From: Geosiphon pyriformis uo1
Lineage: Eukaryota; Fungi; Glomeromycota
Length of the DNA: 64,000 nucleotides
NCBI GenBank assembly: GCA_016748015.1
Contig: JAAOMT010000135.1
Location: forward strand, 434,001-498,000
Direction of reading: 5' to 3'
The translations under genes were made by a program, and so were the position numbers. The notes beneath the pieces are model-generated. The model was not told the origin of the DNA, searched no databases, and was given only the letters and a program-made list of their open reading frames with translations. The stretch's first letter is position 1; each line of letters starts with the position of its first letter. Shown here piece after piece: positions 1 to 37,484 of the stretch.

Positions 1-336
1 CAGATAATTGCCTTTGAAAAGATAAAACAGTTCCAAAAGAAGCTCAAAAAGAAAAAAACCTATAAAACACTTTCCTTAAGTATTGGTGACTTAGTTTTGG
101 AATACCATTCAGACAGAGACAATGTCTATGGTGATAAATTCTCCAGCCGCTAGAAAGGACTTTTTATAGTCAACAAAGTTTTGAACAATGGTTTTTATAT
201 CTTACAAGATCAATATGGAACAATCTTCAATGATCATCCTGTTCATGGCATACAACTCAAAAAATATCACAAACGACCTAATTGGTTATTTGTTGTGGTA
301 ATACCAACCCAAATGATCAGCAAAAATCAGATATAA
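1..336 (+). pseudogene. Integrase C-terminal (GPY/F, SH3-like) fragment of element C
   Basis: Frame 1 reads IGDLVLEY...DKFSSR*KGLFIVNKVLNNGFYIL...VHGIQLKKY, homologous to the integrase tails at 13613-13951 and 19354-19794. Confidence 0.8.
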
Positions 337-377
337 ATAAATGCACCATTCCCAAAACAGAGGTATTTTCAATCAAC

Positions 378-1034
378 ATGAACAATTATTTCCTGGATCA
401 AAACATTCAAAACGCTTTCTATACTTTCCATGAGTACTGGATCAAAAATTATCCAAATGCTACTCTGACTATTGGAAAACAAACCACTATAACAGACAAC
501 AGTGGAACTCACACTGTTATTAGACCAAAGAAAACAACTACCAGAAGAGAAAAAATTGGTGGCAAAATGGATAAATACCTGCTGGAAAGCATAACAGCAG
601 CAATACTTTCACCTTCCAGCACAATTGGAAAAACAATACAAGAAATCTTGCCCATAGACAAAAACTTGTCATATGGAAGACAACTAGAACTCTATGGTTG
701 TCTTGGTGAAATCATAGAAGACATGAAGCTCATGAAGAAAACAACTTCAGAGATACAAGAGGAAATTTTGGGCATTATATGATTGGATGTCCCAAGAGTT
801 TTGACCATTGCTAGAAGAGCCAGAACTCTTATACAAAGATTTGGTCTCTTGGATACAAAACTTATTTCACCTCAAGTATTATATACCTTATCCACAAAAG
901 ACTTCAACAAACTAGTTAGTTTTGAGTTAGACAAAACTCTTCACATAAACTATTCCATAAATAGCTTGATTTCGCCAGAGCTCAATCTCTTTGGAGAGGA
1001 TGATATTACGGTTGAAACTCATAGTTTTTATTAG
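378..1034 (+). pseudogene. ORF3 (unknown function, env position) of element C; one in-frame TGA at 780
   Basis: ORFs 282-782 and 783-1034 are in the same frame; ATG at 378; lies between integrase and PPT; motifs align by eye with ORF3 of A and B. Confidence 0.7.
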
Positions 1035-1729
1035 TTATCACATGTATTAGCCACTGATGTTATATAATTAGCCACCCTATTTTTAGATAGTGATTGTTGA
1101 CCTGATCAATGACCTGACCATTGACCTGATCATTGACCTGATCAATAACCTGATCGTTGACCTGATTGTTGACTTGATCATTGACCTGATCATTAACCTG
1201 GTCGTTAACCATTTTAGATAGCTATATAAGTGATGATTCCCTTAGCTGTAGAATGACATGAAAAAAGTAACAAAATAAACAATATCAATTACTTCCTCTT
1301 ATAATCACTTATTCCCCTTTTCTTACCTTCAAGTATCTACTTGTTGGCATTCACATACCTTATCTTTTCCTTTTCTTGATTTGTATTTGTTAGAATTAGC
1401 CTAAGAAGCAATTGGCTTGCTTTTGTAATTCATTAAATAAAGAAATGATTGAAAAGTACAATAATATCTGTTATTGATTCTAAGAATTGCCGAGTTGAGG
1501 CATAGAATAATAGCAGCGGTGTTATCTTGTTGACAATCACGGACTATTCCTCTACCTTCAGATTTAAGAAAAGATTAGTGACTATAATTTTTATGAGACT
1601 GATCATGCACATTGAATTCCTACTTATTCAATTCGCTCCCTTATTGTAATTCCCTCTTTGTTTATTTCCATCATCATACAATACTGTTCTCCCTTGTTAT
1701 CCGTTAGCTTGTTACTCCAACCCATAACA
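1004..1729 (+). repeat. 3' LTR of element C (726 bp)
   Basis: Follows the PPT; imperfect terminal inverted repeat; TATA-like CTATATAAG at ~1222; AATAAA at ~1436. Confidence 0.8.
1097..1210 (+). repeat. 12-bp tandem array (TTGACCTGATCA)x~9.5 in U3 of the C LTR
   Basis: Directly visible; bracketed by TTTTAGATAG direct repeats and immediately upstream of the TATA box. Confidence 0.9.
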
Positions 1730-2219
1730 CTATCAATACTTCATGTTGATAATAATTGATACTTAACCCTACTGGAACAATAGCTCTTAATCACGGCTAT
1801 TGATAAGATACTAACTTGCAATTGCTTTTGTTTACTTCTTTATTTTCTTTTATTTTCTTTTATTTCTTTTTGTTATTTCTTTGGTTTTACTAAATTGATT
1901 AAAGATTAAGTGCTAAGATACAGACATTATAGGGACTGGTAAAAGACCTGTGAAACAAGAGTAAAACACTCATAGATTTGAGGATAGCTTACTAGGAGGA
2001 TTACCAGCCACCATACTGAGAAAGAAATTTGACAAAACTACAGTTTCAGGAAGCTATGGATAAAACCATCAATTAAATCTCTGTCCATTATACAAAGGAC
2101 TCAACTTTAAAACCTTCAGATACAATCAACATACCAATGTCAACAGTTTTGTCAAGATATTAAGCACCAAGTTATGGATTTGTTATTTGATTTGAGACCC
2201 CAAATAATCATCTGTAACA
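1730..2219 (+). repeat. B1 5' LTR, 3' portion
   Basis: Near-identical to 20886-21163 plus 22062-22273; ends CATCTGTAACA. Confidence 0.9.
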
Positions 2220-2221
2220 TT

Positions 2222-2238
2222 TGGTGCTCCCTGTGAAG
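2222..2238 (+). promoter_or_regulatory. Primer-binding site of B1 (TGGTGCTCCCTGTGAAG)
   Basis: TGG starts 2 nt after the LTR; complementary to a tRNA ending GAGCACCA (Ile- or Thr-type by inference). Confidence 0.75.
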
Positions 2239-2278
2239 TATAATTTTACAGAGAACCAGCACCAACAACTAATCAACA

Positions 2279-5200
2279 GTGGCAAAATCAGAAAGTATAG
2301 GAGCAAACCATTTAGGATTTGCAAAATCCTTATTTCAATACTACTGTCAACACTTGAGATTAAATCACAATCATATATCAACGAAATCAGCCTTCAATTT
2401 CTACATCAATAAGAAAATTGCTTATTTGTTAGGGACACCAGTAAACACTGAATCAGCAAAAGAAACTTTTTACCACGAATTAATACAAAACACCAGCTTA
2501 CCAACAAATCACAATTTTGCATCCATCATTACTGAGATTAACAAAGAAATTAAACATCACACACAACAAAGATACCCAATCACCTACTCAAGTAAAGGCA
2601 AAGGAAAACTACAAACACCAACAGTAACACCTCAACAGATCCAACCACCCACTTGGAAGAAACACAGAATTGAATCACCTACAAATCCATTATATCATTA
2701 TACTTCTGAAAGTGCCATCCATATTACATCACCAAACATGTCTACATCAAATGTAACATCAACATTTGGATGATTCCCATTCCAAAGTAAACAAAGGAAA
2801 ACAGAATTACTAGGCCCATATGGCAAATATTTTGAAGGATTTCAATCGCAAACACCAATGCCATCAGAAATTTGATCACCACCACCTCCACCAGATTTTG
2901 GGATAGCCAATCCATGAGAAGTATCAGAATTTGAAGAAGAAAGAGAATCAGAAGATCAAAAATTTACTTACCAGAACCCAATCTCAGAAAACCCAGAAGT
3001 TGAAACCCCAAACGTTCAAACTCCGACAAATTTAAATCAAAAAAATCCGGAAATTGAGACTCCAAATATTCAAACACTGTGGAATCAAAATATTCTAAAC
3101 CCCAATTCAATCAATCAACCAAACTTATCTCCAAATACTACCACCAATCACCCACCAATTAACCCAATAGCAGAACCACTACTTTAACAACCAAATCAGC
3201 AAATTCAACAGCTGCAACAACAACTTTAACCACCCATTCAACAATAACAACCAAACATAGACCCAATGACATACATACCAATTGCAAAACTTGACAATTT
3301 CACTGGTGAAGAGGATGACGCCCAAGTATGGCTAACAATGTTGAGAAAGCCATTATCACAAATGGATGGAATGATGTCAAAGCTCTTCAAGCAATCCCAT
3401 ATTTTCTCAAGAACACTGCCAATTTCTGGTATTAGAGCCTAATCAATAAACACCAGGACTTCAATACATTCAAACTAGAGTTCCTAAGATATTTTAGTAA
3501 CAATAATAGTATCAACTAATTGATAAACACCTTTACTACTATCAAACAAGGAGACACAGAAGCAGTCACCACTTACTTGGAATGCTTCTATCAAAATCTG
3601 TGTCAAATCCAAGCAACTGATGCCAACTATTTCACAGCGCCACAAATCCTAAACCAATTTATTAGAGGACTGTATAGTAGCATCCTCCAATGCATACGTC
3701 CAATGCATCCAGTAGACTTTCAAACTGTAGTTACCAATGCCAGAGATTTTGAAGCAGCTAAACTCGAAGCCAATCATGCCCAAGCCATCAATCTAGTGAT
3801 GAATGGATCATCTGAATTGGATTCCAAATTGAAACAATTCAGTGATTTCATTAACCAGAAGCTTGAGGGATACTTAGCTGACAATTGCGCAATTTATCAG
3901 TCACTTCAATGACACAATAATTTAGGAATCACAAATTGCCCAGAAAATCAGTCGCATCCTTTATTATCCACCAATTAACTGTGGCAGCAAGAGACATGTA
4001 TCTACCACTATTGTGGTAAACAAGAACATTTGAGAATCGATTGTTGGTTAAAGATAGAAAACCAACAATTAGGAAATTAATATCGAAACCCCAATCACCA
4101 GTTTTTAACTCCAAGATATCAATCAAATGCAGAAATATATCAACCAAATTACATACCTATAATGCAGCCACAAATTTATCAGCCACCAATTTATCAGCCA
4201 ACAGCACTCGTTATTTATTACCTGCAGCCCCAACTCATTTATCAGCCACAGTCTTAAGTAATCTACCAGCTGCAATAAATGCAAACACTGCCACAGAACT
4301 TACCTCAAAATGGAACTCAAAGGCAGAAACTGACACAGCAAAGCTGGAGATCATCGATGGTGGTCTATCAACCGATCTCCAGTTCTATGGCACAACTATT
4401 AGGTTCTTGACAATGGAATTCAGATACCAGTTCCATTCAAAATCCGAATTCCCAACACTATTTAAGTCTTTTGGTTACTCCAGAAGATGTTATCTCCCAC
4501 AACTCAGAATTCAATCGACAATCAGTACTTACCAACAACATACCTCCAGCCACTGTTACTAATAACGAAACATTGGCTGCCATATTTCCTTTTGAATTCG
4601 AGGAAACCACAATGGTACTATTATTCAGTAGAGCCACCTTAGAGAAAAAACCTATCATGGTGATGTACACTGATGCAAAAGTCAATGGCCACCTCATCAA
4701 ACTGATCCTAGATAGTAAATCAGCTGGCAGCATTATCACAAGACAACTCATGGATCAATTAGGTCACCGAGTTGATCGAGCTGCCAGCACAAGAATTATC
4801 ACTGCTGATAAAGCAATTAAGACCTCTATTGGTGAAATTGATGACTTCCCCATAGAAGTCAATAGCATAATTATTCCAATCAAAGTACTAGTCATGGAAG
4901 CCACTTAGTACTAAGCACTAGTTGGTAATGACTGGCTCACAAAACAAATACCATTCTCGATTGAACCACTCAAGAGTTGCAACTTAGCCAAAACAGCTGA
5001 TACACACAAGTACCAGCAATGTGTAGCCATTTCAAACCCAGTCACATGCCAGCCCTACTAATTGACTTGGAGAAAGAGAAGCCAAAACCCACCTGGAAAG
5101 CATACCAAGTGTCATGGGCTGACAAAGACCACAATGAACTGCTCTCAATACTATCATGGGACAACAACAGAAAGAGAAAACAAAGAGAAGAGCTTACCTG

Positions 5201-5878
5201 GGAGACTGACAATCAGACCTGAACTGACAATGACAAAAATGAGCTGACACCAAACTGAGAATGAAAAGAAGAAAATGATAAAGGAAAGGGAAAAGAGAAA
5301 GAAGAAGAAACAACAACCACCAACACCACTTCTTCTAACTCCTACACTTACTTTATACTACTGCAATCTACCTATCATTGACCAAAACTTATATGCATTA
5401 ATTGTGGCAAGAAATTGTTATTAATGGGTGCATGCTGTGGCAATGATGAAAAATATGCAATGGCAACCAAATTCTACTGCTGCGCATGTGTTATAAAAAG
5501 ATTTGGATGACCAAAGAAGCAAGAAAAATGGAACAACCAATCTTGTCTTGCTTGTGAAAAAACTTTTTTGGATAAAGGAATGTGGAACAACATTCCAGAA
5601 TAAAAAAAAATATGCGACAAATTGTGCCAATACACGATTCTAATTAGTGACTGGGTAAGGAAAGAGACACTGATAGAAGCAGTCTGGAGAAGAGCAGTAC
5701 AACAATTGGACAGTTGTCCACATGATAATAACAAAATCTGGCAAATGGCACTCGCAAAAATAAAAGGAACATCATCCGAGGAGATCAAAGAAATTAAAAA
5801 CAACTCACCAAAACCAATAGAACTTAATTGGGACTCAGAATCAGTCATAAACTTATTAGAACTGAAAGAATTTCACAA
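2279..5878 (+). pseudogene. gag-pol: B1 polyprotein, 5' part: N-terminal domain, Gag (capsid-like region, CCHC knuckle), Q/P/Y-rich region, aspartic protease, start of Cys-rich domain
   Basis: Gag-like MTYIPIAKLDNFTGEEDDAQVWL at 3266; decayed knuckle (Y)HYCGKQEHLRIDC at ~4003; protease LILDSKSAGSII at ~4702; multiple stops. Confidence 0.85.
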
Positions 5879-6848
5879 TGTTATCAGACAAAATTAGAGA
5901 TATTATTTAGCATAAAAATTATCTTATAATTCCTATCATTAATTAGCATATATTATTGTTTCAAATTATCACTTATTACATTAGCAAAAATGTCCGAAAT
6001 TATCATTTAATTAATAACCCTAATTGTACACAACACAAATGTAACCTAATTGCGATGATCAATCATGCAATACCTCAAACTATGTAACATTTAAAAGTTT
6101 GCCGAAATTTATAGAAATTTGTTGAAATAATTGATAGTTCACTGAAATATCTAATAGTTTGTAGAAATAACTTGTAGTTCGCTAAAATGTATCTTTAGTT
6201 CAGCAAAATTGTAGAAAATAGCAAAGTTCAAGTTCATAGAATAGTGTTATAACAAGTTGTATAAAAAAAAAGCTTCTCTCTTTGAGAAAATATATCTTAC
6301 TTTAGTTTTATCACTTAGAACCATTCCTATACACACAAAAAGAAATAAATATTAAATAATTCGAAAAACCAAATTCTTTAATTATTTGCACTTGGAAAAT
6401 CCCCAAGAACCCAATTAACATTTTGAAATTGATTAACTACCAATTTCAGTAAACTGTTAGTGACTCCAGGCCTGGATAGAAAACGTTTCTCTTGACAAAA
6501 TTCTATTTCTTTTATTTTTTTTTATTTTCTTATCATAATCATTAAAGTAACCTACAGACGAGATTTCTGTAGAAGAGTTGACTTTCACAGCAAAGTAACT
6601 ACACATTTTAGTGAGCTTCCAGACGAACAATTCCTGGGAAAGAGTTGACATTTACTACAACATAACTACACAAAGCAACTGGCACGGAATTGGCCATTCC
6701 ACTTATAAGCCCAGCAGTTCAAATTATAGGAGATAATTTGAAAATAAATTCAGTTATTGGAGATTCAACCACATCCAAAAAACGTGAAATTCACAGTAAA
6801 CAAGCATTGACAACATTTAAGAAAAGAGACCAAAAACCTCCGGTAACA
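5879..6848 (+). repeat. A1 5' LTR (970 bp)
   Basis: TGTTATCAGA...CCGGTAACA; direct repeat of 14761-15741; TATA at ~6260; AATAAA at ~6344. Confidence 0.97.
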
Positions 6849-6850
6849 TT

Positions 6851-6867
6851 TGGTGCTCTCCCATGGA
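6851..6867 (+). promoter_or_regulatory. Primer-binding site of A1 (TGGTGCTCTCCCATGGA)
   Basis: 2 nt after the LTR; conserved in A2 (~32950-32966) and A3 (~23500-23516). Confidence 0.75.
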
Positions 6868-6894
6868 AATAACACAGCAACAACAAAATTCAAA

Positions 6895-9800
6895 GTAGCG
6901 ACCACACCAGATGCAACAACTCTAGAGTATTACCAATCAATTTACACCCACTGCAAGCAAAGATTCAACATTCCAGATGGAATTAAAGTTGTCAAGAAAT
7001 CAGTATACCAATACATTGAAAACCACATCAACAATTATCTTTTTGGAAATTACAATATCTCAGAAGTTAGAAGCAACCTTTACAATAATTTAGCACACTA
7101 TTCACAGTTGGGAACTAAAGACCTTAACAGTGAAACACTTGCCATTTACTTTCACGAACTCAATTTTAACATTATCAAATACTGTGAAGAAACATATTCA
7201 GTGCAGTCTCAATACACTATTGATTTTGAATCGAAAACAAAAACAAGCAACAAAGACAAAAACAAATTAAAGCAATATTCAAGAACCACCCCAAATACTT
7301 CAACACTACCAAAAACAACTGCCAACCATTTACAAACATCTGAACAAGGAACCAGTTCAAAACTTCCACTTACTATCACACTTTTTCCAGCTTCACTTGC
7401 ACAAGCACAAACACTTAATTCACCCTTAAATTGATTTGCAAGACCAGAAGATTTTACATCACTCAAAAGTCTCACCAGATAACAAGAACCCCTTTAAACT
7501 AGTTCCAATCTCCTTGATTTTTTAGCTGAAAATCAAAGTGAACACTCTGAGACAGCAGCAAATGAAGAAAACAACTCTGAAATAACTGAAGAAGAATCAA
7601 TAGACAGTGAAAACAAAGAAGACAAAATGACAACATACATTGCAAAAATCCCTGAATTCAATGGAGAAGATATTGAGACCAGTCTCCAAGAATGGCTCGA
7701 CCAAGTTACTAAAGCTGGAGATGCAAATGAATGGAATGCTGCCAGAATGTTAAGAACAATTCCCTACTTTCTCAAAGGAACAGCAGGAGAATGGTTTGAA
7801 AACTTGGCTGCTCCATTCAATGATTGGAATGCTTTCAAAGCAGTCTTCTTTGAACAGTTCACTGACAATAATACCTCTATCACCCTTTGTAATCATTTTC
7901 AAAATATCAAACAAGAACCCTCCGAATCTGTTATGACTTATATTGGGAAATTCAACAAACTTCTCAGACAAATTCGCCAACTCGAAACAAATGATTATTA
8001 TTCCAATGCTCAAATCTTGAATCAATTTATTGCTGGTCTAAAAGATAAACTAATTAAAAAGGTTTGCCCACATGCACCAGAAGATTTAAACTCTGCCATA
8101 CAGCATGCAAAAAGATACGAAATAGCCATAGAAGAGGCCAATCACACAAAACTTGTAAATTTGGCAATTGAAGAAACCAGCTCAGCAGCTGAGAAAAAAA
8201 TTGACCAACTCACAAAGAAGGTTAAAAACTATTTCACCAATCAACAACAACAGCAACCCCAAAGATATCAACCACCCCAAAGACGAAATCAAAATAACTT
8301 TGCACCACTTTCCAATAACCAGTCTCAAAATTGCCATTACTGTGAAATCTCTGGCCACTGAAAAAGAGATTGCAAAAAGCTATAACGAGACCAACAAAAT
8401 AGAAGTAATCAATGTTACCCTCCACTACAGCAATCTTATTATCAACTGCCACTACCAGCTTACTATCCACCAAGACCTCAATACCAAAATAACTATTATC
8501 AGCCCACCTCACAGCCAATCCAACAGCAATACCAACAATCGTTCACACAACATTATCAAGTACCTGCTCAAAGACTGCTTACACAGAATCAATTCACACC
8601 ACAAAACTGATACCAAGTAAACAACAATAGAATCAGTTTGAATAACCAATTGGTTTCTCAAAATTCCATTCAACCAAGACCCAACCACTACCACACTCAA
8701 CCCAGTTATTTAATAATGCCAGAAGAATAGGATTTTTATCATACTGCACCCTCGGAAGGTAGAGCTGCAGCACAACAACAAAACCCTTCCTATACTCTTA
8801 CCACAATTCCACCAGCCAGAATTGCTGAAAACGCTAACCTTTCAGATATATTCCCTTTTGAGTTCGAAGCAAATGAGTCACCATCCCTGCTTAGCAATGC
8901 AGCTGCCAATGAACAAAAAGCAATCACAGCTATGTACACTGAAGCAGAAGTTGAAGAAAAGACAATTCGCTTGATCTTAGACAGTGGATCCGCTGGAAGC
9001 ATTATTACCTACCAGTTAATGCAACAGTTGAAGAGAAATATTGACCAACCAGCTCAAACAGTAATCGTCACTGCCGATGGCATGAAAAAGACCCCAGTAG
9101 GAGAAATTAACAATTTTCCATTCACTCTTGATGGAATTACCATTCCAGTCAAAGTTCTTGTAATAGACACACCTCAGTACTAAGCTTTCGTCAGAAATGA
9201 TTGGCTTCAAAAAGCCAATGCTAATTTGAATTGGGAAACACAAGAGTTAACAATCTCCTACTAAGGACAACACGCCTGAGTATCTGCCACTTGTAGTACA
9301 TTCAACAAACACTTTGAAAAAGCCCCAGCTTTTGAATTCGAACCGGAAGAGGAAAAACCCCTCATTGAAACATTCATGGCTCTTGGATCAACATCCAACT
9401 GGGCTGATAAAACAGAACAAGAACATTTTACCCCACACTCTGAACTCAAACCCTCTGGATGAAATATCCCTTACTCAAAACCTGAACCAAGAAAACAATG
9501 CCCCTATATTCTCCTTAAATGTAAAGACTGCCACAAGAAACTATCATCAATGGGAGCCTGCATTTCACCTGAAAAAGAATATAAAAATCATACTTGTTAT
9601 TACTGCAAGGCTTGCCACAGAGAACAATGGGGCCATTTAATAAAAAGAAGCAGAAAATGGAACAACACTCCTTGTTTGACTTGTGGAGATATGCTACCAG
9701 AAGAATGCAATTGGATTGATGTAGCCATGAGAGGAGGAGTCTACAATCAGACCTGCCAATATGCTTTATCAATTTCAGAAAAAGTAAAAAGAGGAACACC

Positions 9801-12513
9801 CTTTAATGCGGTATACAACAGTGTTTTCAACAAACTTTATCACTACCCCCATGATGCTGAGATGATTTTTGACCTAGCAATAGCATTAATTAATGGAGCT
9901 ACCAAAGAAGATGTTTGCCAAATGAAGGAAGCAGAATACATTGAATACACCATGAAATTAGCTGGATTCGATTATGAAGACAAAGTAGAAGTCTACCACC
10001 AAATTGCAAGTCACACCTACCCAACTCAAGAAGCTCAAATTCAATGATTAGAGCAAATAAACATTAGGCTATGTAAAGAATGCATTATGCCTTGCAATGA
10101 ACAGTGGTGTCCTGAATGCTATACTCTTAGTATCCTCTTGCCCAGCAAAAATGATGAGAACAAAATTAAATTTGGAGAACCTGAAGCAATAGAAGAAATT
10201 GAAACAACACCTATCTACCTTATCGAAAATTAGCCTGCCTTACAACTTAAATACTTCAACAACAACGGACAAGGAATAAAACCTGAAAAAGCACACGAAA
10301 TTAATGCTGGATATGACCTAAGATATCCAGGCAAGGATACTCTTGTTCTCAAACCCAAATCTCTCACAAAAATCAACCTCAAAATTGCACTCGAAATCCC
10401 ACTAGGAGCAATAGTTCAAATTACCTCCTGGTCCTCTCTGGCAAGCAAAGGAATCAATGTCAGAGGAGAAATAATCGATGCTGAATATACTGGAGACATT
10501 ACAGTGATGCTTCAAAATGAAACTGACAAACCATTCAAGATCGAACATGTTGAAAAAATTGCCCAAGCTATTTACCTACCCTTAATCAACATTTCAGGTT
10601 TGCAACTAGTCAATCAAAGAGAACAATTAGAAAAAAGTGATAGAGGAACCCAAGGTTTTGGTTCAACTGGACAATTCACAGTTCCAGTTAACATAGCTCT
10701 TAACACATGGAACGAATCCCACCAGATTCTCAGACTTCCACAACCAATTACCATCTCACCCTTTGGAGAACATTCAAAAATCTACACCTGCCCAAAGCCA
10801 ACAACCACACAACAAATTTTTGAGTCCAATGAACAAGTCTGCTTGGAACATAATATTTCAATCCCAAACATTTATATTCCAGAAGGAACAAAAAAAGTCC
10901 GAGTTACTTTTTACAACCCCAATAATTACCCCATAATTTTATTAAATAATTTAGAAATTGGAGTTATTCACAGTAATATATTTCAACAAAAATTCCCCCA
11001 AACAGTCCCCAATTTCTCTGAAATTATTGGACATTCAATACCAAAAATCAACCCAAACCCCAGCTCCAAAAACTACCATGTTGTCAGGGAAAAACTATCT
11101 CAAATCAACATGGGACAACTTGAACCACAACAACAGATCCAGCTCAAAGAGCTAATTGCAGAATTTGCTGATATCTTTGCTGAAAACAACAATAACTTAG
11201 GAAGAACCAATTTGGTCCAACACCAAATTTATACAGGAGATGCCAAACCAAAAAGACAACAAGCATATCAAGTTGCTCCAGAAAGCCACCAATTCATCTG
11301 AGAAGAAGTACAACAAATCCTTAACAATGGGCTCATCCAACCCTTCATGAGTTCTTAGGCTTCACCTGTAGTGCTAGTTAAAAAGAAAAATAGAAAGATC
11401 CAATTTTGTGTTGACTATCGACAACTCAACAGTGTTACAATTGGAGATGCCTATCTCCTTCCCCGGATTGATAACATGTTAGATGCTCTTGGAAAATCCA
11501 AATACTTTTCAACACTAGATTTAGAAAGTGGTTACTGGCAAGTTGCTATGGATCCCAAAGATCACTCCAAAACAGCATTCACTACCCAAGGCAGAAATTA
11601 CGAGTTCAATGTAATGCCTTTCGGATTATGCAATGCACCAGCAACGTTTCAGAGATTAATAGATGTTGTGTACCAAGAACTTCTTTGGAAATCAGTAGTC
11701 ATTTATCTTGACAATACTGATGTTTATTCTCCATCGTTCAAATTACACTTAAAACATCTGCGAGAAGTTTTTCAATGATTACAAAAAGCAGAACTAAAAC
11801 TCAATATCGAAAAATGCTACTTTGAAAAAACAAGCCTGGTCTTCCTTGGTCATATTGTTAATAAAGATGGAATTAAACCAGATCCTGGAAAAATCAGCAT
11901 TGTCAAAAACTTCAAAACTCCTCGGAACACTACAGAACTAAGAGGATTCATGGGATTAGCATCCTACTATCGGAAGTTTATCAAAAAATTTTTGGAAATT
12001 GCAAAACTCCTCAACCAGCTCACTACCAAAAACGTTAAATACAAATAGACTACTGAACACCAAAAAGCTTTTGAAATTCTCAAGGAAAAACTGACAACAG
12101 CTCCAATTCTCGCCTACCCAAATTTCAACAACTGATTTCGACTAGCTACAGATGCTTCATATACTGCCTTTGGTGCTATCTTATCACAACTAGATAACAA
12201 CAAAAATGAGTAAGTAATTGCTTATGCTAGCAGAACATTAAAACCAGCTGAGAAAAACTATCCTGCCACAGAACTAGAAACAGCAGCCATAATTTGGGCC
12301 TTACACCACTTCAACCTTTATCTTAGGCCTAAAGAATTCGATATTATCACTGATAATATTGGACTCAAATAGCTTCAGAACAAAAATACTCAGCTGAATG
12401 CAAAACAAACCCAATGGACAAAATTTCTAGCAAACTATTGATACATAGTACATCACAAACCAGAAAAACTCCACACCAATGTTGACTGTCTCTTCAGAAT
12501 AAGACAAGATTAG
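6895..12513 (+). pseudogene. gag-pol: A1 ORF1: N-terminal domain, Gag, CCHC, protease, Cys-rich domain, dUTPase, RT, RNase H in one frame with ~20 nonsense substitutions
   Basis: ORF pieces at 6850, 7627, 8932, 9550, 10504 and 11371 share frame 1. Motifs: CHYCEISGH*KRDC at 8332; LILDSGSAGS at 8971; FCVDYRQLN; MPFGLCNAPATFQ; YLDN (decayed YLDD) at 11704; ATDAS at ~12145; natural stop RIRQD* at 12511. Confidence 0.93.
10240..10671 (+). other. dut: Trimeric dUTPase domain between protease and RT (A1)
   Basis: All five motifs are recognisable: AGYDL (10306), SWSSLASKG (RSS), GEIIDAEYTG, KIAQAI, RGTQGFGSTG (10642-10671). Homologues at ~16140-16533, ~29150-29590, ~35231-35625 and ~51820-52220. Confidence 0.9.
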
Positions 12514-12565
12514 AAAACCACAAAAACCAACACTCAACTTAACCAACCAAAAGAGCCAACAAACA

Positions 12566-13951
12566 ATGAATTTGGAAAACTACAATGATCTTAAACAATA
12601 TTTGGAAACATTAACAATCCCAACAGATTGGTCTCTAGATGAAAAACATCGACTACAACAACAAGCCAAACAATATTTTCTACACAACAACATTATTTAT
12701 TACCGAAATTTCAAAAACTCAGACAAACCACTCAGATTAATACAAGAACAGGAAAAAAAGACTATATTATACAACATGCACTCAAATCCTTCATCAGCCC
12801 ACTTCGGAAAAGACAGCACCACCCAAAGAACACTAGAATACTACTTTTGGCCTCGAATGAAAAAAGACATTTACGAATATGTCGAATCTTGTGATAGTTG
12901 TTAAAGAAGAGGAGGAACTTGCCCTACAGAACCTTTAAACCCAATCAAAGTTGGACAGCCTTTTGACAGAGTTGGTATCGATTTAGTCAGACCACTACCT
13001 ATCACAAACCAAGAAAACCATTACATTGCAGTAGCCGTAGACTATCTCACCAAATGGCCTAAAGCCAGAGCCATTCAATGGACAGATGCAAAATCAGTAG
13101 CAAACTTTATCTATGAAGACATCATTTGTAGACATGGATGCCCAATAGAACTTTTATCTGATCAAGGAACACATTTTGTGAACAATTTAATCCAGGAAAT
13201 TTGTGGATAATTTAATGTCAAGAGACCATTATCTTCATCCTACCATCCACAAACAAATGGACTGATAGAACAGTTCAACAGAACATTGTGTGAATCATTA
13301 GCCAAAGTTTCAACCGATTTTGAGCAAGAATGGGATCTCTTTATTCTATCAGTGTTACTAGCATATAAGACACTAAAACAAGATACCACAAAACACACAC
13401 CATTTGATTTAACTTACGGAAGGACGGCAACATTACCAATTAGTTTCACAGTAGAAACATATCCAGCACAACCAATCAATGAAAACAATTTCCAAGAAAT
13501 GCTTTAACAAAGAGCCTACACTCTGCTTAGCACATTAGAAGAAAAACAACGAATAGCAGCCACTCATATTGAATACTCCCAAGCTCAACAAAAAGAATGG
13601 CATGATGACAAATTGCCTCCAATCACTAATGAATTTAAAATTGGAAACAAAGTTCTCTTACACAGAACTAAAGCTGAAAAACAATGGAGTGGAAAATTTG
13701 AAAATAAATGGCATAGACCATTCTTTATCCATGAAGTTTTAGGCAATGAATCATACAAGCTAAGACTTGATGACAAAATTCTAGCAAAAGTTGCACATGG
13801 AGATCGTTTGAAACACTATAATTCCAGAAACAATCCTGAACCATTAATTTTACAAATTGGTACACATTCCCCTTTAATCAATCCCGAAGACATTCCCCGA
13901 AATTTAGAACCAATAGTTGTCATTGAACAGTCTCACAACTTAAACACTTAA
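12566..13951 (+). pseudogene. A1 integrase, separate ORF (HHCC, DDE, GPF/SH3-like; no chromodomain)
   Basis: MNLENY start; H...H...CDSC; VGIDLV, LLSDQGTHF, YHPQTNGLIE; WHRPF; three stops, one frame. Confidence 0.92.
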
Positions 13952-14072
13952 TTTAAATTTATTATTATAGTTATCTTCTTATAATTTAGAAACAATCTCA
14001 CAAAAACAAAACAAAAATAACATAAAAACTCATGCACCAAAAATAATTTTCTTTTATTTCAAATTGCTTATA

Positions 14073-14792
14073 ATGACTATTCCTCAAAACATTCAACAAT
14101 TATCCCAAAAACTAATGTTAGCTTTAAAAACAATACCCGAATTATCCATTACTGTTACTGGAAACTACATTAATTATACCCAAACAGAAGTAGTTACAAA
14201 TTTAGCCCCAAATTCACGAAAATATTATCCGTATAAGAAGAATACAAGAAGTTATACTGGAATTCACCTGCCAGAACTTTTAAAACTTGCTTTAAAAGAA
14301 AATCTAATGCTCACTCCGATTAGTATTCCACCAAATGCTACAATTCAACAAAGACTTCAACTGTGTCTCAATGAGGAAAACACTGAATATCCTCCAATCT
14401 ATAGATATTTTCACATTGGAAAAACACTCTACAAACAGAAACTAAAACTTACAACAGCAAACCTCACAAAAAAAGCTATTCAGAAACAACTCCACAACGA
14501 ATTCAAAACAACAGCTGGATCAACAAATAGTTACTACAGGCTCAGAGCTGCTCTTAGACTTTATGACCTATTCCACACCTGTGAAAACGTACTACAAAAC
14601 CCAATTTTTCAATCTTTGAAGATTCAATACATTGGAAAGCTCACAGAACTGAAATTTCAACAATTTTCAGACCAAATTTCTTCAATAATTTTGGATTATT
14701 ATCTGGAAATAACAAACAGTACTTGGACTTCGACGGAGCTCAGTCTTGAGGAGGAGGTTATGTTACCAGACAAAATTAGAGATATTATTTAG
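14073..14792 (+). CDS. A1 ORF3, intact 239-aa protein of unknown function in the env position
   Basis: Open from ATG 14073 through the PPT and 32 bp into the LTR; homologous ORFs in A2, B1, B2, B3 and C. Confidence 0.8.
   Translation: MTIPQNIQQLSQKLMLALKTIPELSITVTGNYINYTQTEVVTNLAPNSRKYYPYKKNTRSYTGIHLPELLKLALKENLMLTPISIPPNATIQQRLQLCLNEENTEYPPIYRYFHIGKTLYKQKLKLTTANLTKKAIQKQLHNEFKTTAGSTNSYYRLRAALRLYDLFHTCENVLQNPIFQSLKIQYIGKLTELKFQQFSDQISSIILDYYLEITNSTWTSTELSLEEEVMLPDKIRDII
14748..14757 (+). promoter_or_regulatory. Polypurine tract of A1
   Basis: GAGGAGGAGG 3 nt before the LTR TG. Confidence 0.85.
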
Positions 14793-15741
14793 CATAAAAA
14801 TTATCTTATAATTCCTATCATTAATTAGCATATATTATCGTTTCAAATTATCACTTATTACATTAGCAAAAATGTCCAAAATTATCATTTAATTAATAAT
14901 TCAAATTGTACACAACACAAATGTAACCTAATTGCGATGATCAATCATGCAATACTCTGAACTATGTAACATTCAAAAGTTTGCCAAAATTTATAGAAAT
15001 TAGCCGAAATAATTGATAGTTCACTGAAATATCTAATAGTTCGTAGAAATAACTTGTAGTTTGCCAAAATGTATCTTTAGTTTAGCGAAATTGTAGAAAA
15101 TAGCAAAGTTCAAGTTCATAGAATAGTGTTATGATAAGTTGTATAAAAGAAGAGCTTCTCTCTTCGAGAAAATGTATCTTACTTTAGTTTTATTACTTAG
15201 AACTATTCCTACACACACAAAAAGAAATAAATATCAAATAATTCGAAAAACCAAATTCTTTAATTATTTGCACTTGGAAAATCCCCAAGAACCCAACTAA
15301 CATTTTGAAATTGATTAGCTACCAATTTCAGTAAACTGTTAGTGACTCCAGGTCTGGATAGAAAACGTTTCTCTTGACAAAATTTTATTTTTTTTACATT
15401 TCTTTTATTTTCTTTTATTTTCTTATTATAATCATTAGGGTAACCTACAGACGAGATTCCTGTAGAAGAGTTGACTTTCACAGCAAAGTAACTACACATT
15501 TTAGTGAGCTTTTAGACAAGCAATTTCTGGAAAAGAGTTGACGTTTACTACAACGTAACTACACAAAGCAACTGGCATGAAATTGGCCATTCTACTTATA
15601 AGCCCAGCAGTTTAAATTATAGAAGATAATTTGAAGATAAATTCAGTTATTGGAGGTTCAACCACATCCAGAAAATGTGAAATTCACAGCAAATAAGCAT
15701 TGACAACATTTAGGAAAAGAGACCAAAAACCTCTGGTAACA
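14761..15741 (+). repeat. A1 3' LTR (981 bp)
   Basis: 10-bp perfect terminal inverted repeat TGTTACCAGA/TCTGGTAACA. Confidence 0.97.
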
Positions 15742-18364
15742 ACAAACACTACCAATGTTTGGCACTCACCAGAGAAGAGCAAGAACAATGGCTAAAACAA
15801 TTAAACGCCAGATTGTGTCACCATTGTTTAATTCCCAGTGACTTTGAATATTGTAATGAGTGTGATCTTATTTACAATCCACTACCATGCATAATCTACA
15901 TGATCTCAGAAAAAGAAAAACCAATTGGTAACTGCACATCGGAATCAGAATTAGTTTTTGATCCCGATTCGAACTCTAACAACAATAACGACAAAAACAC
16001 TGGTCCCAGCTCTGCTCAAAATGGCAATGAAAATATCAGTGATGCAAACTCCAATTCAAATCCCAAAATATATATTGCATTTCCTGATTTATCTAAGAAA
16101 CAGGAACTTAAATAGTATAGCAACAATGATAAAGGTATTATGCCAAAATGCGCACATGATACCAATGCAAAGTTTAATCTAAGATATCCAGGAAAAAAAG
16201 CCATCAAATTGGAACCAAATTTGTGCACATGTATTGATCTCAAAATAGCTCTGGAAATTCCAGCAACAACCATGGTCCAATTAGCATCTAAGAGTAGTTT
16301 AGCGAAAAAAAAAATCAACATTAGAGGAAGAATAATTGATGTGGGATATGTAGAAAATATCATCGCCATGTTACAAAATGACTCTGAAAAGGCCTATATT
16401 ATAGAGCCAAACAAAAAGATAGCACAAGCAATATTCCTATCTCTGGTGAAAATAGCTCAATTAGTGTCAGTGAGAAACAGAGAAGAATTAAGGATTACTG
16501 CTAGAGGAATACAGGAATTCAGATCAACAGGTAGAATAGACATACCAGTTAATATGGTGGAGAAAGAGGTTATTGACAAAGGAGAAATTATCTCAACCTG
16601 TCAATCAATTTCCATTCCACTATATGACCAGTATAGGTTAGCCATAAAAAGAAAAGTAAAGAATCAGGCTCAGTTGTTTGAAGCAGAAGCCACTATTTGC
16701 AAATCAGGAGAGATTGGACTCATTAATCTCTACATATTAGCCAAAAGCCCCAAAAACATTAAAATTCTTATTTACAATACAACTGGAAATGTCATCGAAA
16801 TATCAAAGGGAACCATCATTAGGTATTTAACCACCAAAGTTGAGGATCAACCACCAAACCACATTCCAGATTTTCAACAGCTTTGCGGATATGTGGATAT
16901 TACATCACAAACCATCTATGGAAGAGGTAAATGTTATCTGCTCCAACCAGAACAATTAGAACAAATGAACATGGGGAATCTAGATCCACTTCAACAGATG
17001 CAACTCAAGATATTACTCAATAATTTCAATGACATCTTTGCAGCAAAAATGAATTTGGCTGAACCAATATCATCTAGCATCAGATCAAAACTGGAGGTGC
17101 AATGCCAATAAAACAAAGAGCATACAGAGTACCACCAGCTAGCCATGAGATTATTCATTAAGAAATTAACTGAATGCTTGACAATGGGCTAATTCAGCCA
17201 TCAATGAGTCCATGATCATCACCAGTGGTACTGGTTTATAAGAAAAATGGGAAAATCCGTTTTTGTGTAAACTACTGGAAACTGAATGGAGTAACAAAAG
17301 GTGATAGCTATTCAACTTCAAAGATCTAAGAACTATTTGACACTTTTGGAGAAAATAAATAGTTCTTAACACTGAACTTAGATAGTGGTTACTGGCAAGT
17401 AGCCATGAATTTAGCCAACAAAAAAAAAACAGCATTCACCACAAGAAAAGGAAATTTTGAGTTTGAAGTCATGCTATTTGACTTAATAAATGCTCCAGCA
17501 ACATTTCAATGGCTCATGGAAATTGTCTATACTGGATTACTATGGAAATCAGTAGTTGTATACTTGAATGACACCAATGTGTTTTCAAAAACATTTGATA
17601 ATCATTTGTATTATCTCTAACAAATATTTGAAAGGTTAAAAAGAGCTGGATTAAAGCTAAATGCAACTAAATGTTTCTTTGGAAAAACTGAACTCAAGTT
17701 TTTGGGACATGTGGTAAGCAAAGATGGAATCAAAACAGATTCAGACAAGATTGAAGTAGTTAAGAACTTTCCAGTACCAACCAACTTGTCAGAACTAAGG
17801 GCATTTTTGGGATTCGCAGATTACTATCACTGCTTTATTAAAGACTTTTCTAAACTAGCTCAGCCACTTCACCATCTACAAACCAAGAATGTGAAATATG
17901 AATGGACTAAAGCTCAACAAAAAGCATTCAACACATTGAGAAGAAAGCTTATTTAAGCTCCAGTATTGATGTATTCAGATCACAACAAACTATTCATTAT
18001 TACTACTGATGCATTAGGTCAAGCATTGGGAGCAGTACTATCACAGAAAAGACTTGATGGAAGAAAGCATCCAGTAGCTTATGCCAGTAGAAGTTTAAGC
18101 CCAGCAGAAAAGAACTATGGAACTCCAGCACTAGAACACTTAGCAATCTATTAGGCTGTTATCAAATAGAGAAAATACTTGAGCCAAAAATTTGAAATAT
18201 ATACAGATCACAAAGGATTGACTTCAATCCAGAAACAAGAATTTGCAGACAATTGCCATGTCAGATGGAAAATAGAACTTTCACCATTCAACTATACAGT
18301 ACATTACAAAAAAAGAAAAGACAATAGAAATGCCAACAGTTTGTCGTGAATGAAACAAATATAA
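15742..18364 (+). pseudogene. gag-pol: B1 polyprotein, 3' part: end of Cys-rich domain, dUTPase, RT, RNase H
   Basis: LCHHCLIPSDFEYCNECD; dUTPase in ORF 16140; YLND; TTDALG; VAYASRSL; natural stop MKQI* at 18362. Confidence 0.9.
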
Positions 18365-18417
18365 AAACATTTCAACCCAAAAATATAACAAAACCAAACC
18401 AAAACCAATAAAAAAAA

Positions 18418-19794
18418 ATGAACACACAAAAATACCAACAGCTTCAACACTATATAAATACCCAACAGTTCAAGGAGAAGTTATCTCAAAAGAAACGAAA
18501 TAACATCAAGCAACAATCAAAATATTTTATCAATTATCAAAATATACTTTACTAGAAAAATAGACAAAATTCAGATCAACCAACCAAGATAATTACAGAG
18601 CCAGAGAAAGAAACAATACTGTTCAACATACACTCAGATCCAACAGCAGGACATTTCCACAAAGAAGCAACCATAGAAAAGACCAGAAAAAGATACTATT
18701 GGCCATCAATATATCCAAACATCATCCAATATGTTCAAAATTGTGATGCTTGTCAAAGAAGAGGAGGAACAAAACCCAGTAAGCCATTAAGACCAATTAA
18801 AGTAAAACAACTATTTGATCACATTGGAATTGACTTAGTCAAATTATTAACAATAACTAGCAAAGACAACAGATATATAGCAATAGTCATGAATTATCTT
18901 ATTAAGTGGCCAAAAGCAAAAGCAATTCAAAGAGCGGATGCAGAATTTGTTGCCAAATTTGTTCATCAAGACTTGATTTGTTAACATAGATGTCCAAAAG
19001 AATTATTATCAGACCAAGGAACTCACTTTGTGAACAGAACATTAGCAGAATTGAGCCAAAGATTCGGAATTAAAAGGCCACTATCATCACCATATCATCT
19101 ACAAACAAATGGTTTAGTTGAAAGATTTAATAGAACATTGTGTAAAGCAATTACCAAACTCAGCCAAAAAAACCAAGATGAATGGGATTTGTTTATACCA
19201 TCAGTACTATTTGCTTATCAGACAATGAAGTAAGATACTATACAAGCAACACCATTTGAATTAGTATATGGTAGAACAGCAACAATACCAGTTAAAATAG
19301 AAGTCAACACATATCCAACTGAACCAATAACAAAAGAGAATTTTCAGAAAACATTGTTGAGAAGAACATATGACTTAATAGAAATATTGAAAAACAAACA
19401 AAGAAGAACAGCTGATAATATTCAAAGATCACAAGAGAAACAGAAAGAAAGACATGATAGTCAACTACCAAACAAACCAGTTGAGTTCAAAATTGGAGAC
19501 AAAGTACTCTTATATTGTACCAAAGCAGAAAAACAATGGAGTGGAAAATTTGACCCCAAATGGGACGGACCATTTCACATAAAAGAAATTCTAGGAAATG
19601 GAGCTTATAAATTAAGATTGAACAGTAAAATCTTGACAAAAACAGCACATGGAGATCAATTGAAACCATACCACAATATAGTGTTACCATCTACTAGTAA
19701 CATTTCACAATTGGGAGTACAGAGACTATTAATCAGACCAGATGAAATTTCATGAGATTTAGAACCAATTGTCATTATCAACACAAACACGTAA
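18418..19794 (+). pseudogene. B1 integrase, separate ORF
   Basis: ATG at 18418 (MNTQKYQQ); CDAC; IGIDLV; LSDQGTHF; NGLVERFN; WDGPF; ends LEPIVIINTNT*. Confidence 0.9.
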
Positions 19795-19855
19795 AAGTGA
19801 TCGACCAAAAAAAATATATAAAGACATGGTAGATGCAACAAAAGATATTAGAAAA

Positions 19856-20503
19856 ATGGAGATTACTGATAACATCTACTTACTAGTACAACAACTATTC
19901 AAACTGATTCAACAACAAAATATAGAAATTACTATCAATCAACAAACCATTCAATACCGAGATACCAGAAAGATACCCAAATACAAAAGTAAAAAGAAAA
20001 CAGAAAACACCATTGACAAAATGGTTCTAAAAATAAAATTAGCAATTGAGGAACCAACAAGTGTTACTATATATTAAGAGTTGACCAAAAAAACATGGAA
20101 ATGGTGGATACATGAATTTCCAAGAAACTTCTGTTACTTCTATTTGGGACGACACTTGAACATTCAGAACTTATACACAGATAAAACAAAACAATTATTC
20201 AACACAGCAATACTGCAACAACTAGAACAATTCGTAGGAAAAAACAATCTGACCACACAAGCAAAAGCCATCTATTGGCTACATATAGGATTTTAAGACA
20301 GACTGGAAATTTTACTCAATCCAGAATTAAACTCCATTACAATTAACCAAATAGGAAAAATGACCAACACTCAATTTAAAGAATTGCAGAACCAGATAAC
20401 TCAAATAATCCTTGAAAGAGAAGTTCAAGAAATACTCAACAACAAAAAATTAGAGTTAGGAGATTTAAGAGATTTAAGAGATCTCGATGGAGCTCAATAT
20501 TAA
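19856..20503 (+). pseudogene. B1 ORF3 (~215 aa, two nonsense mutations)
   Basis: ORFs 19769 and 20081 share a frame that continues to GAQY* at the PPT. Confidence 0.78.
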
Positions 20504-20517
20504 AAAGGAAGGAATAA

Positions 20518-22273
20518 TGTTACTCATAGAATATAGAAAATATATTAGCACATGAAATAGCCAATTAGAGATAGCCGTAGTAAATGTGGAATTCCAGGAT
20601 TCCTCTCAAGAGGAATTGCAGGATTTCAGGAATTTCAGGATTCTCTGGGCAAGGAATTGCAGGATTCCAGAATTCCAGGATTCCTCTTAAAAGGAATTGC
20701 AGGATTCCTGAGGTGAAGAATCGAGGAATTGAGGAATCTCAATTATGTATATATAGCAGTAGTGTTAGAAGTAGGAAAGGCAGAATCTTTAGTTAGAAAA
20801 CCTCTCCATTTAGATTTTTATCTAAGCAACTTTCCAAATCACAAATATTAATAAATAATTATTCACTATCTCAATTCACTCTTTACTATCAACACTTCAT
20901 GTTGATAATAATTGATACTTAACCCCACTGGAACAATAGCTTTTGATCACAGCTATTGACAGGATACTAATTTGTAATTGCTTTTGTTATTTTCTTTATT
21001 TTTTTTTATTTTCTTTTATTTCTTTTGTTATTTCTTTGGTTTTGCTAAAATTGATTAAAGATTAAGTGCTAAGATACAGACATTATAGGGACTGGTAAAA
21101 GACCCATGAAACAAGGATAGAATACTTATAGATTTGAGGATAGCTTACCAGAAGGATTACCAGTGTTACCAGACAAAATTAGAGATATTATTTAGCATAA
21201 AATTATCTTATAATTCCTATCATTAATTAGCATTGTTTCAAATTATCACTTATTACATTAGCAAAAATGTCTGAAATTATCATTTAATTAATAATCCAAA
21301 TTGTACACAACACAAATATAACCTAATTGTGATGATCAATCATGCAATACCCCGAACTATGTAACATTCAAAAGTTTGCTGAAATGTATCTTTAGTTCAG
21401 CGAAATTGTAGAAAATAGCAAAGTTCAAGTTCATAGAATAGTGTTACAATAAGTTGTATAAAAGAAGAACTTCTCTCTTCAAGAAAATGTATCTTACTTT
21501 AGATTTAATAATTAGAATCATTCTTTACACACAAAAACGAAATAAATATCAAATAATTTGAAAAATCAAATCCTGAATTATTTCACTTTTGAAATTAACT
21601 AATTTCTACTAAACAGTTTGAAATTGATTAGCTACCAATTTCAGTAAACTGTTAGTGATTCCAGGCCTGGATAGAAAACGTTTCCCTTGACAAAAATTCT
21701 ATTTCTTTTACATTTTTTTTATTTTTCTTTTATTTTCTTATTACAATCATTAGGGTAGCCTACAGACGAGATTCCTGTAGAAAAATTGACTTTCACAGCA
21801 AAGTAACTACACATTTTTAGTAAGCTTCCAGATGAGCAATTCCTGGGAAAGAGTTGATGTTTACTACAACGTAACTACATAAAAGCAACTGGCAAGGAAT
21901 TGGCCATTCCACTCATAAGCCCAGCAGCTCAAATTATAGGAGATAATTTGAGAATAAATTCAGTTATCGGAGATTCAAACACTTTCCATAATTGTAAATT
22001 AACAGCATTACAACAAACATACAAGAGCTAAGAAGAGACCAAAAATCTCTAGTAACACCAGCCACCATACTGAGAAAGAAATTTGACAAAACTGCAGTTT
22101 TGGAAAACTATGGATAAAATCATTAATTAAATTTCTGTTTATTATACAAAAGACTCAACTCTAAAATCTTCAGATACAACCAACATACCAGTGTTAACAG
22201 CCTTGTCAAGATATTGAGCACCAAGTTATGGATTTGTTATTTGATTTGAGACCCCAAATAATCATCTGTAACA
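20518..22273 (+). repeat. B1 3' LTR, interrupted by a solo A LTR
   Basis: TGTTACTCAT...TCTGTAACA; follows PPT AAAAAGGAAGGAA; U3 array of GGAATT/AGGATTCC units at ~20588-20740. Confidence 0.92.
21164..22057 (+). mobile_element. Solo LTR, family A (894 bp), TSD CCAG
   Basis: TGTTACCAGAC...CTAGTAACA; CCAG at 21160-21163 and 22058-22061; a single CCAG at the equivalent site in the B1 5' LTR (~2004). Confidence 0.95.
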
Positions 22274-23473: not shown

Positions 23474-24039
23474 TTTGAATTTGTTGTTGCTGTGTGATTT
23501 TTATGGAAGAACACCAAATGTTACTGGAGGTTTTTGGTCTCTTTTCTTGAATGTTGCTAATGTCTGTCTGTTGTTAATTTCATGTTTTCTGGAAGCAGTT
23601 GAATCTTCAATAACTGAATTTATCTTCAAATTATCTCTTATAATTTGAATTGCTGGACTTATAAGTAGAATAACCAATTTCATGCCAGTTACTTTGTGTA
23701 GTTACATTGTAGTAAACATTAACTCTTTCCCAGGAATTGCTTATCTGGAAGCTTACTAAAATTGTGTAATTACTCTGCTGTGAAAGTCAACTCTTTTACA
23801 AAAATTTTATCTATAGGCTACTTTAATAATTATAATAAGAAAAATAAAATAAAATAAAAAAAATATAAAAAAAATAGAATTCTGTCAAAAGAAACGTTTT
23901 CTATTCAGGCCTGAAGTTGCTAACAAATTACTGAAATTGGTAGCTAATTAATTTCAAAATGTTAGTCGGGTTTTGAAGAATTTCAAGTGTAATAATCAAA
24001 GATTTGGTTTTTGAATATTTAATTTTTATTTGAATATGG

Positions 24040-25699: not shown

Positions 25700-25860
25700 G
25701 ATAAAAATGACCAACTAATAAACAAAATTTGAAAAAAAATAAAGAAAATTATTTTTGGGTATAGGATTTTTATTTGTTTTTGGGTTTGGGTGTTTTTGTA
25801 ATTATTTACTATTTTTGTCTTTGTGTGTTATTAAAAAGATTATTGTAAAATTATGTTGAA

Positions 25861-27246: not shown

Positions 27247-27303
27247 TGTTGTTTGGTTATTTTGTTGGTAGATTGGTAAGTTGTGGTGGATTTGTTGTTG
27301 ATG

Positions 27304-32923: not shown

Positions 32924-32968
32924 TTTGAAGTTGTTATTACTGTGTTATTTCTGTGGGAGAGCACCAAA

Positions 32969-37300: not shown

Positions 37301-37454
37301 TAAAGAATTGATTTCAATTCAGAAGCAAAAATTTGGAGATAATTGTCATGCTAGATAGAAAATAGAACTTTTACCATTTAATTATACAGTATATTACAAA
37401 AAAGGAAAAAAAAATGGAAATGCTGACAGTTTGTTACAGATAAAACAAATCTAA
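34383..37454 (+). pseudogene. gag-pol: B2 polyprotein fragment (Cys-rich, dUTPase, RT, RNase H)
   Basis: ORFs 34700, 34985, 35231, 36062, 36654 and 37017 are homologous to B1. Confidence 0.88.
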
Positions 37455-37484
37455 GAACATTTAAATCAAAAAATATAACAAAAG

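Follow-up and report, generated by a model that had tools for sequence, protein, structure and literature searches.

An apparently undescribed Ty3/Gypsy variant in Geosiphon pyriformis with a stand-alone integrase open reading frame

Can a Ty3/Gypsy retrotransposon carry its integrase outside the Pol polyprotein, and is such a break an ancestral feature or a product of mutational decay? Long terminal repeat (LTR) elements and retroviruses normally secure the packaging and dosage of integrase through a polyprotein fused to Gag. We examined a 64,000-nucleotide stretch of the Geosiphon pyriformis uo1 assembly (contig JAAOMT010000135.1, positions 434,001 to 498,000, forward strand; hereafter the window), in which element A1 (5879-15741, + strand) is an LTR retrotransposon, mutationally dead and nested in a related family-B element. 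The canonical layout, with integrase in frame within the Pol polyprotein, was not found in A1. Instead, a first open reading frame (ORF1; frame 6847-12513, +) runs from an N-terminal domain through Gag, protease (PR), a Cys-rich domain, dUTPase, a linker and reverse transcriptase (RT) to RNase H and closes at a conserved stop (12511-12513), followed by a 52-nt A/C-rich, ATG-free, unstructured spacer (12514-12565, +) and by ORF2 (12566-13951, +), a stand-alone integrase that has its own ATG, H2C2 and DDE motifs, an SH3-like end and 3 decay stops. A1 is thus apparently an undescribed variant that descends from and works like Ty3/Gypsy without the canonical fused pol, its main novelty being the stand-alone integrase; the dUTPase is known from other elements, and two further acquisitions of the Geosiphon branch, a third ORF (ORF3) and the Cys-rich domain, are real though unexplained.

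In all five related copies in the window (A1, A2, B1, B2 and B3), comparison revealed a stop no more than a few codons from where RNase H ends. A database search with the RT-RNase H region, covering proteins of 805-2295 aa, returned 7469 matches of 7960 scored candidates, of which the best 120 were taken, and a tree of 103 rows (the 100 of these 120 listed matches passing a coverage filter, plus 3 window copies) placed the window copies with 55 database proteins from Rhizophagus clarus and metagenomes in a clade of 58 rows (Shimodaira-Hasegawa (SH)-like support 97). This clade was recovered in a 43-row IQ-TREE run (SH approximate likelihood ratio test 98), the rows of the trees being database matches and window copies, with no GyDB, REXdb or Repbase reference elements among them. 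Within it, 51/55 database proteins are without a fused integrase: 37 end close to where RNase H does, no more than 26 residues away and in 33 cases within -5 to +2 residues of the A1 stop, and 14 carry a tail of 72-392 aa past RNase H that holds no integrase. Outside the clade most tree rows are fused pol, such that the clade is nested among fused-pol Gypsy proteins, and chromodomain-bearing matches lie outside it in both trees. Together with the purifying selection described below, the clade bears out an earlier note on this DNA that had proposed a distinct three-ORF Ty3/Gypsy lineage with conserved accessory domains, and the closest intact relatives do not show the conventional fused pol that the note had named as a refuting case. 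The tails past RNase H contain Cys and His in the two that were read (P0203 and the metagenome locus L009), others being those of P0206, P0209, P0213, P0219 and P0226; in L009 (1922-2690) the tail's stop is followed by a Met-started integrase.

The integrases themselves gave a matching picture. Among the best 120 of 782 matches to the A1 integrase (search limited to proteins of 253-807 aa), 97 have a Met start at exactly A1's position and 19 begin further in; the listed matches are 43-52% identical apart from one Geosiphon fragment, 5 of them are named Rhizophagus irregularis, and the seven H2C2 and DDE residues are invariant in 120/121 rows. A scan of 3/64 parts of the metagenome data yielded 6 loci resembling clade members, and the DNA of four metagenome loci (L009, L010, L028 and L039) holds a stop, a spacer and a Met-started integrase; of the six, L028 and L046 have broken frames and long branches, which makes their tree positions unreliable. 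Because the stop recurs in 5/5 window copies, fused integrase is lacking in 51/55 clade proteins and the Met start is fixed in 97 of the best 120 integrases, we conclude from sequence comparison that the RNase H stop is ancestral and that the split is not decay. The stand-alone integrase is therefore a clade-wide feature, which the earlier note had underrated.

Several points weigh against this reading. Four of the 55 clade proteins do contain an integrase, P0198/P0397 being a genuine fused pol that branches at the clade's unresolved base; three R. clarus gene models (P0197, P0202 and P0204) join RNase H to integrase without the RNase H end motif; the size range of the integrase search could not return fused forms; gene callers begin ORFs at Met, leaving only the fixed position of the Met as evidence; and the metagenome relatives have no assigned host. 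Both the end motif of RNase H and the conserved Met of integrase are skipped in the three R. clarus models. Their joins could reflect a real splice or an intron placed by the gene predictor; the latter is the more probable, and an intron called across the stop in this way would conceal the split in genome annotations.

How, then, might a separate integrase be made? Eight spacers between the RNase H stop and the integrase ATG (4 from the window and 4 from the loci) span 14-149 nt and are all ATG-free and A-rich, and 7/8 fold at -2.2 kcal/mol or weaker. An A stands at -3 in 7/8 junctions, the frame offset of integrase relative to RNase H varies among copies, and the in-frame stop is doubled in family B and L010. 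We consider it reasonably probable that integrase is a separate gene after a conserved stop, made by termination-reinitiation over a short unstructured spacer, and slightly favor the view that such reinitiation occurs on the genomic RNA. Ribosomes would terminate at the RNase H stop, cross the spacer and reinitiate at the integrase ATG, presumably with less integrase than Gag-RT as a result; as Gag and RT, encoded in a single frame, come out in equal amounts, the split would let integrase alone be made at a lower level. Integrase would then have to reach the particle or the cDNA without being fused to Gag, probably through contacts, formed as it is made, with its own RNA or with Gag, as in foamy viruses, whose Pol is packaged through RNA and Gag contacts (PMC3196705). 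Counting against reinitiation, the spacers exceed a tight stop-start overlap in length, and A-rich leaders would equally fit an internal promoter or a spliced subgenomic RNA.

The alternative that fares best is that integrase is translated from its own subgenomic mRNA, produced from an internal promoter in RNase H or by a splice from the 5' LTR leader. Such a message would agree with a Met that is conserved and in good context and with a frame offset that varies freely, and spliced transcripts are the usual source of ORF3 products in LTR elements (PMC5408684). The spacers of A2 and B1, however, lack any G and hence offer no splice acceptor there, no conserved acceptor was seen by eye at the RNase H end in five copies, and spacers down to 14-30 nt exist, such that we regard a subgenomic message for integrase as unlikely, if still worth attention. 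We see less merit in regulated splicing, by which some transcripts would lose the stop and have integrase joined to Gag-PR-RT-RNase H; this would solve packaging, and the three R. clarus models are joined in this way, but those models are predictions almost identical to one another, they lack the end motif of RNase H and bypass the conserved Met, and such a splice would not need a Met fixed in 97 of the best 120 integrases, which makes it improbable. Readthrough of the RNase H stop, or its bypass by a programmed frameshift to give a conventional fused Pol, would suit A2, B3 and L010, in which integrase is in frame with RNase H; yet other copies have offsets of 1 and 2, family B and L010 would require passage of both in-frame stops, and spacers of 14-149 nt come with no downstream structure. 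Because of these spacer features, the varying offset and the double stops, we exclude readthrough and a fixed frameshift from the preferred account and give them very little credence. Lastly, that the three-ORF look is a decay artefact of a hypermutated conventional element, as might be thought of copies full of transition-derived stops with CpG depleted to 0.32 of expectation, is almost certainly wrong given that intact relatives share the place of the stop, their integrases share the Met start and ORF3 is under purifying selection.

Decay and selection can both be read in A1. The two LTRs, ~970 bases each, are 92.8% identical by self-comparison of the window, and their divergence (0.066 under the Kimura two-parameter model) was not converted to an age because 58/60 substitutions in the pair are transitions. 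The ORF1 frame (6847-12510) stays in register over 1888 codons, 21 of which are internal stops. Eighteen of the 21 are sense codons in A2, and the 3 that A1 and A2 have in common compare with ~4 expected by chance from the A2 decay rate of 0.186; on this comparison the internal ORF1 stops are decay. Measured in three copies, the fraction of stop-prone codons that decay has turned into stops is only 12-35%, as against 5/5 copies for the RNase H stop. The stop at 9181, found in A1, A2 and B1, was tried as a programmed readthrough site and rejected, as B2 and one database protein have Gln there. Several translation-level controls had been suggested for this element; only the breaks between RNase H and integrase and between integrase and ORF3 are conserved, and with 18/21 stops being sense in A2 the suggestion is not supported beyond those two breaks. 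Ratios of nonsynonymous to synonymous substitution (dN/dS) between A1 and A2 are 0.09-0.28 across the named domains (N-terminal core 0.22, Cys-rich 0.15, dUTPase 0.16, integrase 0.28, ORF3 0.20) as opposed to 0.5-2.0 in shifted frames, from which we conclude that all domains show purifying selection.

The boundaries of A1 are well marked. Its 5' LTR (5879-6848, +) has TG...CA ends with a short terminal inverted repeat, its 3' LTR occupies 14761-15741 (+), and the element is bracketed by a 4-bp target-site duplication, ACAA (left copy 5875-5878, right copy 15742-15745, +). The flanks on either side are one family-B element, and an empty site, joining 5874 to 15742, occurs in 2 contigs of DNA run X1, which is possibly the window's own source. 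A tract resembling a primer-binding site (PBS; 6851-6866, +) starts with TGG 2 nt past the LTR, its assignment being by position and form only, and a polypurine tract (PPT; 14748-14757, +) lies within ORF3. Pfam matches within the ORF1 frame fall in the order Gag, protease, dUTPase, RT and RNase H: the N-terminal accessory domain (6877-7251, +), without a Pfam match, precedes the Gag capsid (Retrotrans_gag, Ty3_capsid; 7621-8373, +), which has one CCHC knuckle at 8332-8373, an aspartic protease with DSG (8908-9258, +), the Cys-rich domain (9499-10119, +), with five CxxC pairs and likewise no Pfam match, the dUTPase (PF00692, E 8.8e-20; 10282-10686, +), and RT plus RNase H (11134-12510, +). Pfam reports H2C2, rve and a weak SH3_Tf2-1 in the integrase, and no chromodomain family in it at E up to 1.

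In ORF1 no ATG lies ahead of Gag, and the A1 N-domain frame opens within the 5' LTR. That A1 has no evident frameshift, as had been claimed, is correct for the unbroken frame 6847-12510; relative to A2, A1 carries a 1-nt indel near 6884, where A3 reads like A2. In the A2 and A3 counterparts of window 6650-6890 the N-domain frame is open back through the PBS into the LTR, bar single stops. The A2/A3 pattern suggests either a non-AUG start or a spliced leader for ORF1.

Accessory domains of ORF1 differ in how far they extend. The Cys-rich domain, likely zinc-binding, is common to families A and B (z 34.6 against shuffles) and gave no match to the PR-RT linker or tail of 6 relatives (best z 2.1). 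Homology of the N-terminal domain between A and B is weak (z 3.2 and 5.8 against shuffles), and a weak match to it was found in 1/3 relatives tested (z 3.3). Within the data examined, the large Cys-rich domain and ORF3 appear limited to a sub-lineage. As for the dUTPase, which by analogy with its known family would keep uracil out of the cDNA, P0177, P0216 and P0231 carry a dUTPase between PR and RT that is 47-53% identical to that of A1. In the same split-integrase clade P0201, P0205 and P0214 have a NUDIX/MutT domain, with the protease lying downstream of it in P0201, and the NUDIX/MutT and dUTPase relatives fall on different branches. Nucleotide-sanitising enzymes thus seem to have been repeatedly gained or lost within the clade.

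ORF3 (14073-14792, +) is intact in A1, encodes 239 aa and runs over the PPT and 32 nt into the 3' LTR, such that its C-terminus (window 14740-14792) contains a glutamate run encoded by the PPT and reads on into the LTR. It is common to families A and B (z 15.5 against shuffles). The best 120 of its 204 database matches are all G. pyriformis 'hypothetical proteins', 62-93% identical. A profile of ORF3 run against 1.84 billion representatives gave 36 matches, and the five looked up were three from Geosiphon and two metagenomic (P0269 and P0270). The latter are only 29-31% identical to ORF3 yet keep the PPT-encoded C-terminal motif, so that both probably belong, as ORF3s, to related elements of other fungi. 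The profile returned nothing significant in 86 loci, including L039 with about 1.4 kb past its integrase, and because it found none there we assign ORF3 to the sub-lineage.

Attempts to assign ORF3 to a family via Pfam, PDB sequences and the Atlas found none, the best Pfam match, DUF1016_N (E 0.16), being below threshold. A structural model built from 23 diverse rows reached a mean predicted local distance difference test (pLDDT) score of 70.9, as against 42.9 from near-identical rows, and is mostly helical, with a confident helical core at ~residues 80-200 and no membrane span. It had no match in PDB or BFVD at E up to 0.001, and the best hit of a wide structural search (Z 5.1, root-mean-square deviation 2.4 over 67 residues) lay within background. 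From this we tentatively and weakly suggest that ORF3 may act inside the cell as an accessory protein with a regulatory or anti-silencing role, that it perhaps binds nucleic acid and that it would be expressed from a subgenomic RNA. Speaking against that suggestion, the isoelectric points of ORF3 homologues range from 5.4 to 9.2, which disfavors nucleic-acid binding, and the function is argued from exclusion and the DUF1016_N match. An env-like or fusogenic ORF3, which would make this an endogenous-retrovirus-like fungal element, could be supported by its env position, its sense strand and its presence in every copy with a 3' end; the highest 19-residue hydropathy of only 0.79-1.29 in 6/6 homologues, the lack in these six of any membrane segment or RxK/RR furin site, their 1-3 cysteines and the helical model render it highly improbable.

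The other copies in the window repeat this organization to different extents. A2 (24041-33928, -) is a second full-length family-A copy, 75% identical to A1 and with the same three-ORF layout; B1 (5' half about 1728-5878, 3' half 15742-22273, +) is the host element of the A1 insertion; B2 (47036-57055, -) is a full-length family-B copy, in which the integrase start codon has decayed; and B3 (34385-40377, +) is the 3' half of a family-B copy, from the Cys-rich region onward. Families A and B are about 65% alike. The shared layout that had been claimed for A1, A2, B1, B2 and B3 is confirmed by the same domain and ORF order in the first four; for B3 only the 3' half is available, and no Gag or protease was found for it in the window. 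The further claim that an element C (window 1-1730) shares the integrase-ORF3 end holds in weaker form. Element C has an integrase end and a 218-codon ORF with one stop, with an LTR-like region next, and this ORF (378-1030) terminates across a purine tract; the ORF3 profile gave no match to it, and only 1/3 pairwise tests against ORF3s exceeded 300/300 shuffles (P0270, z 6.6), so that homology to ORF3 is likely, though distant and weak.

Further remnants surround these copies. The 3' LTR of B1 is interrupted by a solo LTR of family A (21164-22060) that has its own 4-bp duplication, and an older A-type LTR lies at about 61522-62499 in DNA of 15-17% GC. Adjoining the 3' LTR of A2 is a partial family-A copy (22274-24034, -; LTR end, N-domain and part of Gag), and adjoining its 5' LTR a partial extra LTR (33933-34385, -). 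Decayed frames at about 44500-47000 and 57050-60400 (-) resemble, by eye, the RT/RNase H and ORF1/endonuclease regions of non-LTR retrotransposons.

Set against known systems, A1 resembles canonical Ty3/Gypsy elements in its TG...CA LTRs, 4-bp duplication, PBS-like tract, PPT, CCHC Gag and Gag-PR-RT-RNase H-integrase order. It differs in that integrase there belongs to one Pol polyprotein (PMC3248453, PMC5408684) and here is separate, in that the break lies between RNase H and integrase rather than between gag and pol, and in the absence of a chromodomain; single-frame gag-pol is itself known from DGLT-A (PMC5911963) and RtPc2 (PMC4427930). The C-terminal chromodomain that marks chromovirus integrases is thus lacking, as are the membrane segment, furin site and cysteine-rich ectodomain that would mark the third ORF of an errantivirus or retrovirus-like element. 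The label 'retrovirus-like' in the earlier note overstates the case and is not supported, as ORF3 is without membrane segment or furin site and the RT is far closer to Ty3, its best solved relative (E 3e-92), than to any retrovirus (foamy 1e-38, other retroviral 1e-21; caulimovirus-type 1e-56). Troyka elements, found in animals and formerly classed with Gypsy, are an unusual LTR lineage with CG...CG termini and target duplications of 3 bp (PMC12440569), unlike the TG...CA ends and 4-bp duplication of A1.

Parts of the A1 combination have been described singly. A dUTPase between PR and RT, as in A1, occurs in PosPlaTy3-5 (Postia), Phanerochaete elements and Tmt1 (Tuber) (PMC2864245) and in planarian Burro (PMC6431247); the Postia and Phanerochaete elements, compared here by description only, were grouped with chromodomain-bearing clades, unlike A1, and the accessible sections mention no separate integrase for these fungal elements or Burro. 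Bdelloid rotifer Vesta, Juno and TelKA combine a dUTPase in pol with a family-specific ORF3 before the 3' LTR (PMC5408684), and plant elements have additional sense ORFs, often non-env, between pol and the 3' LTR (PMC7264820). As these sources describe them, the rotifer and plant ORF3s are env, GDSL esterase, DEDDy exonuclease or membrane proteins, none of which the A1 ORF3 matches in Pfam, and the elements keep integrase in pol, unlike A1. Only functional analogies were found for the separate integrase: foamy viruses package a separately expressed Pol that is not fused to Gag (PMC3196705), although they separate all of Pol and A1 integrase only, and LINE-1 ORF2 is thought to be made by reinitiation past the ORF1 stop (PMC11485995), although LINE-1 has no integrase and its ORF2 start is AUG-independent, in contrast to the conserved Met of A1-type integrases. 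A list of five integrase arrangements includes no separate ORF in its accessible part (PMC2774666), and the split is unmentioned in the accessible parts of PMC11952901, bioRxiv 10.1101/2021.03.30.436303, PMC4427930, PMC5911963 and PMC2582038. In this literature no Gypsy element was found whose integrase is described as occupying an ORF of its own; subscription papers, Repbase, GyDB, Dfam and the transposable element libraries and supplements of arbuscular mycorrhizal (AM) fungi, in which such an element may be present or named, were outside its scope. The combination had been put forward as undescribed; this is upheld for the split, within the literature found, and not for the dUTPase and the non-env third ORF, each of which was already described.

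LTR elements make up 41.2% of the G. pyriformis genome (PMC11952901). Recognition of this one corrects gene annotation in mycorrhizal fungi, ORF3 having 204 matches of which those listed are annotated as host hypothetical proteins. It is possible, though we hold it only as a tentative picture that may well prove wrong, that A1 belongs to an undescribed major LTR clade of AM fungi whose integrase was freed from Gag-Pol and took a new delivery route to the particle or the nucleus, and that the Geosiphon branch added a zinc-rich domain, a dUTPase and a silencing-countering protein of a new family that helped it to fill much of the genome. In any case, a clade with a free integrase needs another route of translation and another way for integrase to reach the cDNA, and both needs are testable in intact relatives of the Rhizophagus type.

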